Below the pieces are notes generated by a model. The model did no database searches, had not been told where the DNA came from, and saw nothing but the letters and a program-made list of their open reading frames with translations. The position numbers were made by a program, and so were the translations under genes. From contig CAVUDW010000002.1 in the NCBI GenBank assembly GCA_963740355.1, positions 1,536,001-1,600,000 on the forward strand: 64,000 bases of DNA, read 5' to 3'. The DNA comes from an uncultured Gemmatimonadaceae bacterium (GTDB lineage: Bacteria; Gemmatimonadota; Gemmatimonadetes; Gemmatimonadales; Gemmatimonadaceae). Shown here piece by piece: positions 15,543-48,226 of this stretch. Position 1 is the first letter of the stretch. Each line of letters starts with the position of its first letter.

Positions 15543-16190
15543 CTAGCCGAACAGCTTCTTCAGCAACCCCGGCGGGCGAATCTTCACCTGTGGCTTGAAC
15601 TCGATGCGGCCCTGGCTTGCGCGCTCGCGTTCGACCTGCTTGCCCTTCACGTTTTCGCGGATGTAGTGGTGCTTGCCCTGCGTGCCATCCTTGGCGAACG
15701 AGTCGATCGATCCGACGTAGCCGTAGAACGAGCAGTTCTTGTAGCCGCGTGAATACATCTCGTCAGCCACCTGACGGGCGAATGGTGGGCCCGCCACTTC
15801 GGGATCGGAGCCGATCTTGCCACTTTCCGCGCTGTGGCAGTTGAACAGCTTGATCTTGCCTGAATAAGCCTTTTTCAGGCCGCTCTCGATGAGGCGATCC
15901 ACGACCGTCTCGACATCGATTCGTTCACCACCGCGACCACCTTCGATCGACTTGAAGCCCGGCATGCCGTGACCGCGGATGTAGATCTGGCCCGTGCTCA
16001 TCGATGACATGAACGGATTCTTCGTCTTCGGCTTGTACCAGACCGCGACGGCGGTGTTGCCCTTGGTCAGCTCGTGGTCGATATCCTGCTGCAGCTTGTT
16101 CATCCCACCCTGCGCGGAGCCGTATTCGGTCTGCGCCGCGAGATACATGTGGTGATTGGGATCGTAGGGCATGAAGAACGCTTTGTTCAT
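15543..16190 (-). CDS. Putative clan CD (C80/OspB-like) cysteine protease, candidate T6SS effector
   Basis: IYIRGHG ... KIKLFNCHSA ... FARQVA ... FYGYVG pattern; ATG at 16190 (MNKAFF); no signal peptide. Confidence 0.65.
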   Translation of the reverse strand: MNKAFFMPYDPNHHMYLAAQTEYGSAQGGMNKLQQDIDHELTKGNTAVAVWYKPKTKNPFMSSMSTGQIYIRGHGMPGFKSIEGGRGGERIDVETVVDRLIESGLKKAYSGKIKLFNCHSAESGKIGSDPEVAGPPFARQVADEMYSRGYKNCSFYGYVGSIDSFAKDGTQGKHHYIRENVKGKQVERERASQGRIEFKPQVKIRPPGLLKKLFG

Positions 16191-16531
16191 TGCCGTGAGC
16201 CTCGAATGGGTGGTGACCTGTGGAACGGAGACAGCGATCCGGCGGCGGGGGAGGGCGGTCGCCCCGCGTGAAGGCACAATTGTGGGGGGTGGGGCGCGAA
16301 GTCGCCACTGGCCGGTCCGGACGATGGATGCGACGACGTGACACTGCGCTCGCGTTTGCGGAAGCCGCTCAGAGGTGGCGCTGCCGACGCTCTGGCGCTT
16401 TGCCGAACCGAGCGACATCCTAATGGATGGGCTTGGTGCGGCAGGGCGTCGCCGATGGTCAGCGCAGGCAGAACTCCCAAGAGCGTACAGAACCCTCGCT
16501 GGCCCCTCACCCCTCCACACCAAACGACTTC

Positions 16532-17140
16532 ATGTCAAACGCGTCGGCCGCAGCAAAGCTTGGTGATCCCGCGAAGAAGCTGGCGAAGGCGCAGTTTCAG
16601 GCCTGGCTCGAGAAGAACGTGAAATCAGCCGACGCGACGGTGATCAAGTTCATGCTCGACTACTTCGAGCTGACATGGGACCTTCTCAGCGAGTCAATCA
16701 AACAGGGCAAGGTGCCTGCCAAGGGCGACATCATCCGCTACTTCGGCAACAAGGCCGTTGCGCTGAGTGGATTTTCCGAGGACAACGCCGTGGCCTGTGT
16801 CTCCTCCGTCGTATCCTTCGGCATCACTGCTAGCAATCTTGAGACCGCGGCAGGCGGCGTGCCCGGCGTCGTGCTGTACATCAGCCTGTTGATGCTGGAC
16901 GGTTTGGACGTGGGCGGGAACTGCTACCTCGCGTACCTCGATCAATCGAACGCGCAGAAGATCGAGCAATTGAAAGTCGATCTCGAAAAGCGCCGAGCGA
17001 GGGCGTTCGCCCAAGCGCGCACAAACATGACCGGCACCGCGCCGCAGGCGGACCCGCTGGCCGCATTGCTGCAATACGAAGGACGGCAACCGCAGCAGTG
17101 TATGAGTTCGCCAGCGATCGCCGTGCCGCGACTTCCATAA
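16532..17140 (+). CDS. Hypothetical helical protein with central hydrophobic hairpin
   Basis: Coding-like codon usage from ATG 16532; hydrophobic stretch flanked by two Cys, then a coiled-coil-like segment. Confidence 0.65.
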   Translation: MSNASAAAKLGDPAKKLAKAQFQAWLEKNVKSADATVIKFMLDYFELTWDLLSESIKQGKVPAKGDIIRYFGNKAVALSGFSEDNAVACVSSVVSFGITASNLETAAGGVPGVVLYISLLMLDGLDVGGNCYLAYLDQSNAQKIEQLKVDLEKRRARAFAQARTNMTGTAPQADPLAALLQYEGRQPQQCMSSPAIAVPRLP

Positions 17141-17146
17141 CTCTGC

Positions 17147-46613: not shown

Positions 46614-46710
46614 GGTGGCAGTTGGTTGAGTCAAATCACGAAGACGAGATACATAGGGCTCTCCTCCGAGCGAGGCAACGCCATCAGGTAGGCACGTCGC
46701 CACGCTCTCC

Positions 46711-47286
46711 CTACGCTCTCAGAAGCGTCCCGTTCAGGTCTGCCTGACCGGACTCGAGACATCGCTTGAGATAAGCGAGGTAGTCACGTGTTGTGTCGTC
46801 GACCTGAGCGTTCCGCAGCAGGATCCAGATCTCTGTCGCAGCGAACACCTTTTGCGGTGCGCCCGCCTGGGCGCCGAGGTAGAACGAAACCGCGCCACTG
46901 GCATTGGCTGCGTAGATGCCGGAGAGGGCGCGCCACATGATCAGCATGTCGGGTGACTCCCGCGGCAAGGTTCGTCGTAACTCCTCCTCGACGGATTCGG
47001 CGTAGTGACGGAGTGACGGGAACTTCGTATCCGGCGCTGGAACACGCTCCATCACTTGTGGCAAGATTTCCTTGTCTGCCCATTGCGGTTCCGTCTTCTG
47101 CAGCGCCAGCAGACTGCGCCAGACCGGTGCATCATAGCCAAACCCGTAATACGAATTACCAATCGTATTCTTGAGTTCACCGGCGTAGAACAGCGCCTTG
47201 CCTGGCGAGGCACGAAGCGCGCGGCGCACGGCCGGATGGTCGTGGAGGTAGCGGAGAAACAGCGTGGTGCGCGATGACAGCGCCAT
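46711..47286 (-). CDS. Putative ADP-ribosyl cyclase-like (Tox-ARC) NAD glycohydrolase
   Basis: ALFYAG ... WRALSGIYAANASGAV ... VFAATEIWILLRNAQV matches the ARC/CD38 motif order; GAGGA RBS. Confidence 0.65.
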   Translation of the reverse strand: MALSSRTTLFLRYLHDHPAVRRALRASPGKALFYAGELKNTIGNSYYGFGYDAPVWRSLLALQKTEPQWADKEILPQVMERVPAPDTKFPSLRHYAESVEEELRRTLPRESPDMLIMWRALSGIYAANASGAVSFYLGAQAGAPQKVFAATEIWILLRNAQVDDTTRDYLAYLKRCLESGQADLNGTLLRA

Positions 47287-47518
47287 GGGTCCTCGCCAGG
47301 CGGGAGGGGTATGATGACCCTAATATACGGGACGACATTCGTGCCGCGCTGCGGCCATCGGCCGTTTGCCAGCTTCCGTGACGGACGGCTACGTTGGAGG
47401 AGGGGCGTTCGCGAGCTGAGGGTCACAAAGAATCGCGAGGTCTGAGCAGGTGCGAATATCCCGTCTCGCCCGCCCGTCACATGAAGTACACACTTCGTTG
47501 GCAATCGAGGGATGCGTC

Positions 47519-48226
47519 ATGACTGACATCGTGGGTAGCCAACGGGCAGCGGCCCAATACAACGGCAAGGCGATCGCGTTCTCGCAGGGTGCGGACCTTT
47601 GCGATGCTCTCGTTTCGCGCTGGATCCGAAAGCGGTTTCGCAACAAGGATTTCTTCAATCCGCGCTACTTCAAGGATTGGACCGTCCCGGACAACGCGAA
47701 GTCCTTTCTGCTGGGCTATAAGAGCTGGGCACCAGGACCTGACCCGAAAAAGACGAAACTCGGAGCCGCGCCGGGCGGTTCGCGCGTGATTGGGATGCAA
47801 AAGGCCTTCATCGGGAAGCCGGATGTGTCGAATTCCTACATCCAGCAAGGAAAGCCGAGTCAACCCAACAAAGGCAACGAAAATGACTTGAAGATGTATC
47901 CAACGGCAGCGCGCATTGCGGACAAGGTCGAAACCAAGGACCTGGACCACATCAGCAAGGATTTTCAGGACATCGATCGTCGGCGCCTGATGGTGTCGTT
48001 TTCGTTCCGAACGTTCAACACATCGCATGCGTGTGCACTCGATGCACGATCAGCGAACGACGTCCGCTACTTCGATCCAAACATTGGAGAATTTCGATTC
48101 AACAACTTCAAGGACTTCGTAGGCTGGTGGACGCACTGCGCGAAGACGAAGGGTGCTAGCGCGAAAAAGGAAGGTTTTGACATATTTAACGGACTATTCG
48201 CGTACACCACGTTCACTAACCCTTGA
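47519..48226 (+). CDS. YopT/AvrPphB-like C58 cysteine protease
   Basis: FSQ...LCDAL...W (Cys), SHACAL (His), YFDPNIGEF (Asp); GAGGGA RBS; lower GC; no signal peptide. Confidence 0.8.
   Translation: MTDIVGSQRAAAQYNGKAIAFSQGADLCDALVSRWIRKRFRNKDFFNPRYFKDWTVPDNAKSFLLGYKSWAPGPDPKKTKLGAAPGGSRVIGMQKAFIGKPDVSNSYIQQGKPSQPNKGNENDLKMYPTAARIADKVETKDLDHISKDFQDIDRRRLMVSFSFRTFNTSHACALDARSANDVRYFDPNIGEFRFNNFKDFVGWWTHCAKTKGASAKKEGFDIFNGLFAYTTFTNP

Follow-up and report, generated by a model that had tools for sequence, protein, structure and literature searches.

The closest described counterparts of the locus reported here are effectors of type VI secretion systems (T6SSs). In Pseudomonas aeruginosa, the H3-T6SS has two effectors loaded by Hcp3, the putative cysteine proteases Tce1 (PA0256) and Tce2 (PA2372) (PMC13323088, 2026). 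According to that report, both resemble the cysteine protease domain (CPD) of TcdB, are enclosed by Hcp3 rings, and have no immunity gene nearby; neither markedly affected the growth of E. coli, and Tce2 impaired the growth of yeast in an active-site-dependent manner. The same text cites Cpe1, a papain-like T6SS protease with a bacterial target. In Vibrio coralliilyticus, the C58-like protein CoVe4 belongs to the secretome of the anti-eukaryotic T6SS2 (PMC11371242, 2024). In a table of that paper, CoVe4 is entered as 'peptidase_C58-like super family; TM'; its gene lies away from the cluster, and no immunity gene accompanies it. A third precedent is ARCtox, the C-terminal domain of PANA_2924 of Pantoea ananatis, which has the ADP-ribosyl cyclase (ARC) fold and is fused to PAAR; it poisons E. 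coli as well as yeast, and an immunity protein counteracts it (PMC12605009, 2025). The catalytic residues of ARC toxins are Trp, Glu, Trp, and Glu, and that study reports ARC domains exclusively as fusions to trafficking domains. Here, we describe a stretch of 64,000 nucleotides (the window; assembly GCA_963740355.1, contig CAVUDW010000002.1, positions 1,536,001 to 1,600,000) in which genes for three small enzymes of these folds, named X1, X3, and X4, lie at the two edges of a T6SS cluster.

The window belongs to a soil-type Gemmatimonadaceae bacterium, which agrees with an earlier reading made from the DNA letters (the sequence-only reading) that had proposed a host probably belonging to the Gemmatimonadota. 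Reviews mention this phylum merely as carriers of T6SS genes (PMC11385963), and the literature search brought up distribution-level mentions only. We consider it probable that X1, X3, and X4 are cargo effectors of the T6SS, which is also the best explanation at hand. This reading builds on observations of gene content, folds, conserved catalytic residues, genomic linkage, and absence from relatives; the secretion, loading route, activities, and targets of the three proteins are what we infer from it.

Enzyme genes at the two edges of the cluster

X1 (15546-16190, minus strand; 215 aa, 24.0 kDa, pI 9.5) is a candidate stand-alone clan CD cysteine protease of the C80/CPD-like type. It has no Pfam match up to an E value of 10 and no NCBIfam match, and its family of 67 homologues (about 215 aa, 31-97% identity) is without any precomputed Pfam domain. 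The family ranges over Alphaproteobacteria, Planctomycetota, Gemmatimonadota, and others, with homologues in Nitratireductor, Acetobacteraceae, Elioraea, and Rhizobium. In 27 sequences, H74 (in R72-G73-H74-G75) and C118 (C118-H119, in a CHS motif) are invariant. The AlphaFold model reached a predicted local distance difference test (pLDDT) of 94.1 and a predicted template modelling score of 0.88, and in it the strands 68-72 and 112-116 precede H74 and C118, as in clan CD enzymes. Among the Foldseek matches, the TcdB protease domain comes first (E 2.5e-4); caspases and the Vibrio RTX protease domain come next. VIA, a structural aligner that is independent of Foldseek, returned the RtxA CPD (3fzy; Z 11.0, root-mean-square deviation (rmsd) 3.4, 156 aligned residues) and the TcdA CPD (3ho6; Z 10.8, rmsd 3.8, 162 aligned), then TcdB (Z 8.2), a SAVED-CHAT protease (7.2), and Tce1 in the Hcp3-Tce1 complex (6.8), with unrelated Rossmann-like folds at Z 6.6 or below. 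On the strength of the model, X1 is C80-like by fold and not a sequence member of C80. One match to the X1 family in a relative from the window's family (G521:C28:10836-11495, locus L158) contains a single in-frame TGA, which may point to a defective gene or to a fault in the assembly.

At the opposite edge, X4 (47519-48223, plus strand; 235 aa, 26.6 kDa, pI 9.7) is a stand-alone C58 (YopT-like) protein with a Cys28/His170/Asp186 triad. It matches Pfam Peptidase_C58 (PF03543) with an E value of 3.3e-9 and 37.1 bits against a cut-off of 23, over positions 106-178 of the 205 profile positions; the NCBIfam model of the YopT type (TIGR01586) gave 24.9 bits, which lies below its cut-off of 52.95. 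Among solved structures, PfhB2 (6u8t) was matched with an E value of 0.003, the His and the FDPN.GE motif being aligned. An exhaustive search showed the X4 family to be rare, with 42 representatives mostly 210-250 aa long. Q23, C28, W35, H170, and D186 are invariant in 30 aligned sequences, and C28 is presumably the nucleophile, as judged from the motifs of the family. Going by its sequence, X4 is a small and intact cysteine protease of the C58 type. Only one close homologue was found, and there was no plasmid match.

The gene for X3 (46714-47286, minus strand; 191 aa, 21.5 kDa, pI 9.0) encodes a candidate stand-alone NAD(P)+ glycohydrolase of the ARC (CD38) fold. The Pfam family Rib_hydrolayse scored below threshold (11.6 bits against a cut-off of 25, E 0.18). 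The 28 homologues measure 155-191 aa, most of them about 173 aa, and the open frame of X3 itself spans only 202 aa. Polymorphic ARC toxins carry a trafficking domain (PAAR, Rhs, LXG, etc.) and have an adjacent immunity gene; at these lengths, X3 and the homologues found have no room for the former, and they share no conserved downstream gene. For the X3 model (pLDDT 80.0), Foldseek gave the T6SS ARC toxin of Pantoea ananatis as the best match (E 1.4e-3), and the whole list consisted of the ARC family. With VIA, 9ro8_B aligned at Z 9.1 (rmsd 3.4, 120 of 131 residues, 18% identity). Aplysia cyclase, CD157, and CD38 came next (Z 5.1-5.4), and the unrelated structures scored 4.4 at most. In a profile comparison with PDB sequences, the Pantoea toxin was found with an E value of 0.035 and a streptococcal relative with 0.0088. 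The invariant W118 and E152 of X3 align in this profile to the segment that contains the second catalytic Trp and Glu of the toxin.

The sequence-only reading had described edge genes of 190-235 aa without signal peptides, among them a C80-like protease, a C58 YopT-like protease, an ARC NADase, and an orphan. Hydropathy profiles of X1, X2 (the orphan, see below), X3, and X4 indeed show no N-terminal hydrophobic stretch. The C58 claim is upheld by the Pfam score and the invariant triad, the orphan has no detectable relatives, and the ARC claim, for which Pfam stays below threshold, is borne out by fold and profile alignment. The C80 claim stands as far as the fold is concerned and finds no sequence support in Pfam or NCBIfam.

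Concerning the genomic context, a scan of species-representative genomes yielded 22 X1 loci in at least four phyla. T6SS genes occur in the fetched flanks of two of them: in a member of the window's genus (L012), X1 lies beside the kinase end of the cluster, which is the edge opposite to that in the window, and in a Gemmataceae genome (L014) the gene order is hcp-X1-vgrG. TssC was found in 20 of the 22 X1-bearing genomes (18 of 20 plus G350 and G671), compared with a background of 27/101, 49/101, and 51/101 in three of the families to which these genomes belong, and hcp adjoins tssC in all five other X1-bearing genomes tested within the family of the window. The co-occurrence of X1 with T6SSs is thus an enrichment, given here with no formal test and for related genomes that are not independent. 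A metagenome scan for X3 delivered 78 loci, 25 of which include a flank of 5 kb or more on one side; T6SS genes were seen at 5 of these 25 long loci, and VgrG or pieces of VgrG in 6 loci overall. The linkage of flanking homologues to T6SSs is therefore found for both X1 and X3. No neighbour of X1 is conserved across the 22 loci (clustering of open reading frames (ORFs) gave shadow ORFs only), and the 48 nearest of the 120 predicted neighbour proteins are products of unrelated housekeeping genes. It follows that X1 has no obvious immunity gene, as had been supposed for the proteases from the sequence.

The three genes are accessory. The X3 family is absent from 400 other genomes of the family, 14 of the same genus included, the X4 family has 2 weak matches in 400 other genomes of the phylum, and members of the X1 family occur in 6 of 400 genomes. 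Seven relatives within the family share the whole cluster architecture including both tssK copies (in one of them, G287, the left side only was available), and none of their clusters contains X1, X2, X3, X4, or the Cys-rich gene next to X3; their flanks are unrelated. At both its edges, the cluster thus passes into variable DNA with strain-specific genes.

Two further genes at the edges are of interest as possible partners. Directly downstream of X3 lies the gene for a Cys-rich protein of 346 (or 316) aa (45663-46703, minus strand), a candidate immunity protein. Several CxxC pairs and a CxxCxGxCC-like motif can be recognized in it by eye. There is no match in Pfam or NCBIfam, and the atlas gave a similarity of 0.96 to clusters of hypothetical proteins from Pseudomonadota. 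The gene lies beside none of the 78 X3 relatives, for which ORF clustering, used to look for a conserved neighbour or immunity gene, gave only non-universal neighbours. At the loci of X3 relatives (L026-L103), adjoining genes encode Big_1 surface proteins (nine loci), DUF922 proteins (eight loci), and HEAT-repeat proteins of 405-411 aa directly upstream (five loci). A Big_1, DUF922, or HEAT-repeat protein could be a partner, adaptor, or immunity protein, and none of these neighbours is present in the window.

X2 (16532-17137, plus strand; 202 aa) is an ORFan that is divergent from X1 and convergent with tssM and has one borderline hydrophobic segment near residue 107. Pfam, NCBIfam, and tblastn of the 22 X1 loci returned no relatives, and the best atlas value was only 0.84; X2 was consequently set aside as a conserved partner of X1, the tblastn search of the X1 loci having found no homologue. 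In G287 (L137:6223-9597), of the same genus, a 1124-aa TPR-CHAT protein (clan CD) and a 203-aa ORF of unassigned function lie beside tssM at the position of X1 and X2, and the 203-aa ORF has no similarity to X2.

The spike, Hcp, and the core cluster

The spike of this T6SS is free of toxin domains. VgrG (38290-40323, plus strand; 677 aa) consists of Phage_GPD (1.6e-44), Phage_base_V, Gp5_trimer_C, and DUF2345 domains, which stop near residue 650 of 677, and Pfam revealed no toxin extension. PAAR (40928-41275, plus strand; at most 115 aa; PAAR_motif 2.9e-20) also has no toxin extension according to Pfam and to its length. Hcp, VgrG, PAAR, X1, X2, X3, and X4 are each single-copy in the genome. 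As no toxin is built into the spike and the genome offers a single version each of Hcp, VgrG, and PAAR, non-covalent loading is most likely.

Between vgrG and the PAAR gene lies the gene for a DUF6931 protein (40323-40982, plus strand; 219 aa, pI 5.3), which matches PF22011 with an E value of 1.7e-32 and 112.9 bits against a gathering cut-off of 27. The order VgrG-DUF6931-PAAR recurs in G350, G416, G067, G442, and L012, and PAAR directly follows DUF6931 in every DUF6931-bearing cluster that was seen. By its gene position, DUF6931 is a candidate adaptor. Neither DUF2169 nor DcrB/DUF1795 has a match across the whole genome; the same was found for DUF4123, which is a weak negative as the control genomes also gave nothing. 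In G283 (L138) and G441 (L148), which have the same core cluster, VgrG, DUF2169, a ketoacyl-synthase-like protein, a Tox-PAAR-like protein, and an AHH nuclease replace VgrG-DUF6931-PAAR, and this difference at the spike end looks like a module swap.

Hcp (28858-29355, plus strand; Pfam T6SS_HCP 1.2e-24) is by far more variable than the sheath among close relatives (loci L105, L106, L127, L162, and L163 were compared). In four of these relatives, Hcp is 48%, 51%, 37%, and 37% identical, whereas their TssC is 96%, 92%, 95%, and 91% identical; VgrG is 61% identical and TssB 95-97%. The Hcps of the same genus have an unusual N-terminus relative to the rest of the family. Hcp is acidic (pI 5.4), and the cargo candidates X1, X3, and X4 are basic (pI 9.0-9.7) with sizes of 21.5-26.6 kDa. 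A complex prediction with four copies of Hcp and X1, both supplied as alignments, gave a score of 0.35 (runs 0.00, 0.35, and 0.40), and the best of three controls scored 0.00. With a partner pLDDT of at least 68 and runs sharing at least 5% of contacts, it was graded as 'weak support'. The mark used for such predictions is reached by 116 of 157 solved complexes and by 2 of 215 mismatches, and scores of up to 0.60 comprise only 18 of the 157 solved complexes and both mismatches.

The core genes span 17147-41275 of the window. On the minus strand, tssM (17147-20938; IcmF-related 2.8e-50), tssL/DotU (20767-21462; DotU 2.8e-45), a first copy of tssK (21518-22897; T6SS_VasE 5.6e-119), and a second copy of tssK (25066-26406; T6SS_VasE 5.1e-126) are encoded; they are followed on the plus strand by tssB, tssC, hcp, tagJ/impE, tssA, tssE, tssF, tssG, and clpV (26680-38267). 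Pfam identified TssB by VipA (3e-57), TssC by VipB (2.9e-134), TagJ by ImpE (1.5e-33), TssA by VasJ/ImpA_N, TssE by GPW_gp25 (1.2e-21), TssF (1.4e-190), TssG (1.5e-91), and ClpV by AAA_2 (2e-56). Together, 12 of the 13 core components of the canonical, proteobacterial type (T6SS-i) are recognized by Pfam (TssA, B, C, Hcp, E, F, G, ClpV, VgrG, K in two copies, L, and M), the genes having been called by a prediction based on GC content at third codon positions (GC3) plus Pfam. TssJ (PF12790) was not found anywhere in the genome, which comprises 5.45 Mb in five contigs and is 94.5% complete, and a divergent lipoprotein could escape such a search. A 181-aa ORF on the minus strand (22885-23430) was considered as TssJ and rejected, as no frame in 22880-23160 shows a third-position GC bias and its translation is Arg-rich; the stretch between the first tssK and the following Pro-rich gene looks intergenic. 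The sequence-only reading had announced a near-complete T6SS with toxin-less VgrG and PAAR, and this is what was found. Its statement that no recognizable chaperone is present holds for DUF2169, DcrB/DUF1795, and, weakly, DUF4123, but it overlooked DUF6931 at the adaptor position.

The two TssK copies are paralogues with 34% identity and bracket a gene for a Pro/Ala-rich 635-aa protein (23143-25050, plus strand) with a C-terminal membrane helix (KD19 hydropathy maximum of 2.64 at residue 571) and no match in a Pfam search. This plus-strand membrane protein was preferred over a 552-aa ORF on the minus strand (23217-24875), which was set aside. Two tssK paralogues around a variable Pro-rich membrane gene were also observed in six of the seven family relatives; the stretch fetched for G283 holds the copy of the second type only. 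The right-hand end of the cluster is formed by a Ser/Thr kinase (41332-42972, minus strand; Pkinase 3e-49) and a protein with Big_2 (4.6e-17) and a TolB-like propeller, the latter a weak match (42979-45402, minus strand); both are conserved, as they also follow PAAR in G350 and L012. The kinase is PpkA-like, yet none of the 31 scanned ORFs has a Pfam match to FHA or a PP2C phosphatase.

The genome has no second T6SS. TssC of the window was found in 27 of 101 sampled family genomes, and the machine is therefore common in the lineage and its core cluster inherited. Elsewhere, two VipB/TssC-like genes about 1.5 kb apart were noticed in many alphaproteobacterial and planctomycete T6SS clusters (L001, L002, L004-L009, L014, L015, and L017), and L043 has a second TssB/TssC-like pair; neither arrangement occurs in the window. 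Outside the cluster, two uncharacterized proteins of 271 and 448 aa are encoded at 13349-15461, the larger one beginning with a hydrophobic, signal-like stretch (by eye), and an uncharacterized 767-aa protein with a signal-like start (by eye) and an alpha-L-fucosidase are encoded at 48341-51894. These genes have an ordinary envelope or glycan-degrading look, and none of them occurs near the clusters of relatives.

A proposed delivery route and rival explanations

In the proposed mechanism, a single, inherited T6SS carries at its edges species-specific, horizontally acquired genes for X1, X3, and X4, whose small (21-27 kDa), basic products without signal peptides would serve as cargo. By analogy with Tce1 and Tce2, X1 and probably X4 would be loaded in the lumen of the acidic, hypervariable Hcp ring; alternatively, the DUF6931 protein, at the adaptor position, may attach them to the tip formed by VgrG and PAAR. 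Once the system has fired, proteins of the target cell would be cleaved by X1 and X4, and its NAD(P)+ would be depleted by X3. The proteases would probably hit eukaryotic cells (protists or fungi), and X3 could act in either kingdom.

A number of points weigh against this interpretation. Many genomes of the host families have a T6SS in any event (27-51%), genomes of related organisms cannot count as independent samples, and physical proximity to T6SS genes is limited to 2 of the 22 X1 loci and 5 of the 25 long X3 loci; the evidence for linkage covers relatives of X1 and X3 and none of X4. X1 has no sequence similarity to C80, and its profile found neither a CPD nor Tce1 among the PDB sequences. 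In X3, the first catalytic Trp of the toxin corresponds to Tyr34 in the whole family, although the alignment is weak there, and the Asp or Glu in the LP[DE]V motif of the remaining relatives is replaced by Gln77 in X3 and the two sequences closest to it, at a position that is possibly equivalent to the first catalytic Glu of the toxin. Furthermore, an intracellular NADase without an immunity protein is expected to harm its producer, and none was identified for X3. The Hcp-X1 score falls in a range that is more often wrong than right unless the guess is already likely, the prediction used four Hcp copies and not a closed ring, and part of the signal could reflect resemblance to the solved Hcp3-Tce1 complex. 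For DUF6931, the adaptor role is drawn from gene position alone.

The same genes might also form antibacterial effector-immunity modules whose immunity proteins were not recognized, with X2 protecting against X1, the Cys-rich protein against X3, or further immunity genes elsewhere in the genome. ARCtox, the one ARC toxin that has been characterized, was reported to kill E. coli and to be paired with a cognate immunity protein (PMC12605009), and papain-like T6SS proteases with bacterial targets do exist (Cpe1, cited in PMC13323088). Moreover, X2 and the Cys-rich ORF are uncharacterized and lie directly beside X1 and X3, and family relatives have antibacterial modules of the classical kind, with DUF2169, a Tox-PAAR-like protein, and an AHH nuclease, at the spike end. 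However, neither an X2 homologue nor any other conserved neighbour accompanies the 22 X1 loci, the Cys-rich gene is missing from the vicinity of all 78 X3 relatives, and X4 has no small co-oriented neighbour. Tce2 and CoVe4, functionally the nearest precedents for the two proteases, are also without immunity genes, and Tce2 had no marked effect on the growth of E. coli and impairs that of yeast (PMC13323088, PMC11371242). We regard this explanation as unlikely, albeit as a contender that has to be taken seriously. If, on the other hand, the whole T6SS were dedicated to repelling or attacking protists or fungi, all three enzymes would act only in the eukaryotic cytosol, which seems rather unlikely to us. 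C80 and C58 enzymes are noted for using substrates or cofactors of eukaryotic origin, and a conserved immunity gene for X1 is lacking. The toxicity of Tce2 (PMC13323088) and ARCtox (PMC12605009) in yeast and the place of CoVe4 in an anti-eukaryotic secretome (PMC11371242) fit in as well. But ARC toxins also kill bacteria (PMC12605009), and relatives use the same core machine with antibacterial cargo of the nuclease type, so that the machine itself is not specialized. The suggestion of an anti-protist or antifungal T6SS in the sequence-only reading is accordingly plausible for the two proteases, for which it has precedents; the ARC fold, in the one case that was characterized, harms bacteria as well as yeast and normally requires an immunity protein, and for the target organism the suggestion stays conjectural.

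It is also conceivable that the enzymes are coincidental neighbours of the T6SS, i.e., intracellular proteases, an NAD-metabolizing or signalling enzyme, or parts of defence systems in variable DNA. Twenty of the 22 X1 loci lie among housekeeping genes and far from T6SS genes, members of one genus already have entirely different flanks around the cluster, and clan CD and ARC folds also occur in proteins that are not secreted, as illustrated by the SAVED-CHAT protease with a Z of 7.2 to X1. This explanation is nevertheless quite improbable, given that 20 of the 22 X1-bearing genomes have a T6SS, that the order hcp-X1-vgrG is found in another phylum, and that X3 relatives repeatedly adjoin VgrG. 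Furthermore, three toxin-type folds are present among the five non-core genes that touch the cluster, and the nearest structural match of X3 is a T6SS toxin.

T6SS cargo thus remains our preferred reading of X1, X3, and X4. It could be extended to a launcher with swappable cargo, in which a conserved T6SS is combined with a hypervariable Hcp that co-diversifies with strain-specific, immunity-less lumen cargo, the set present here being purely anti-eukaryotic and comprising a new family of C80-like proteases, a C58 protease, and the first CD38-fold NADase of a stand-alone kind, DUF6931 representing a new adaptor class for toxin-less PAAR tips, and the whole serving as defence against grazers or fungi in a phylum without a previously studied T6SS. 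In this extended form, we consider the idea speculative and distinctly unlikely. If the three proteins are cargo, X1 would represent a new and widespread family of T6SS effectors (67 homologues, no Pfam or NCBIfam model) and would extend loading of the Tce type into the Hcp lumen to bacteria far outside Pseudomonas. For NADases of the CD38 fold, X3 would demonstrate travel as free cargo and not only as fused polymorphic toxins, the identity of Hcp of 37-51% against 91-96% for TssC within one genus would offer a natural system for the study of Hcp cargo specificity, DUF6931 would be a testable adaptor candidate, and the locus would provide a first functional handle on T6SSs in Gemmatimonadota.

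Comparison with described systems

The best structural matches of X1 are the C80 domains of the MARTX toxin RtxA and of TcdA and TcdB, with about 156-162 aligned residues for RtxA and TcdA and with the His and Cys placed after adjacent strands. Unlike these, X1 has no match to Pfam Peptidase_C80 and is not a domain of a large toxin. The Shigella protein OspB is a stand-alone relative of C80. Whereas C80 relatives use type I or type III secretion or holotoxin uptake, T6SS delivery is proposed for X1. In this respect, X1 is closer to Tce1 and Tce2, which, as described in their report, are likewise small and stand-alone with a His/Cys dyad, one encoded in a T6SS cluster and one as an orphan. In size and dyad spacing, Tce2 (190 aa, His65/Cys115) comes near X1 (215 aa, His74/Cys118). 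X1 differs from Tce1 by the lack of sequence similarity and by a fold match (Z 6.8) below that to the RtxA and TcdA CPDs (11.0 and 10.8). Tce1 and Tce2 sit in the Hcp ring according to the same text, and for X1 a weakly supported computational model hints at binding to Hcp.

X4 shares with the classical C58 members YopT, AvrPphB, and PfhB2 the Pfam C58 match, the Cys/His/Asp triad, and the FDPN.GE motif, which aligned to PfhB2. Like CoVe4, it lacks a signal peptide and is encoded without an immunity gene next to it; in contrast to CoVe4, it measures 235 aa and is encoded beside the cluster, a comparison made by description only. At the spike, DUF6931 takes the place that DUF2169 has in the VgrG-DUF2169-PAAR-like-toxin modules of G283 and G441, with vgrG on one side and the PAAR gene on the other. 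It belongs, however, to another Pfam family and is smaller (219 aa against about 360 aa), and in the window PAAR is toxin-less and followed by no toxin gene.

The top structural match of X3, ARCtox (PDB 9ro8), is associated with a T6SS. In contrast to ARCtox, X3 and its relatives of about 173 aa are stand-alone and have no identified immunity gene, they carry a Tyr in place of the first Trp, and X3 itself has Gln77. All three enzyme folds already have a T6SS precedent. New are the combination of three such enzymes in one Gemmatimonadaceae locus, the unannotated X1 family, the stand-alone form of the ARC fold, and the hypervariable Hcp.

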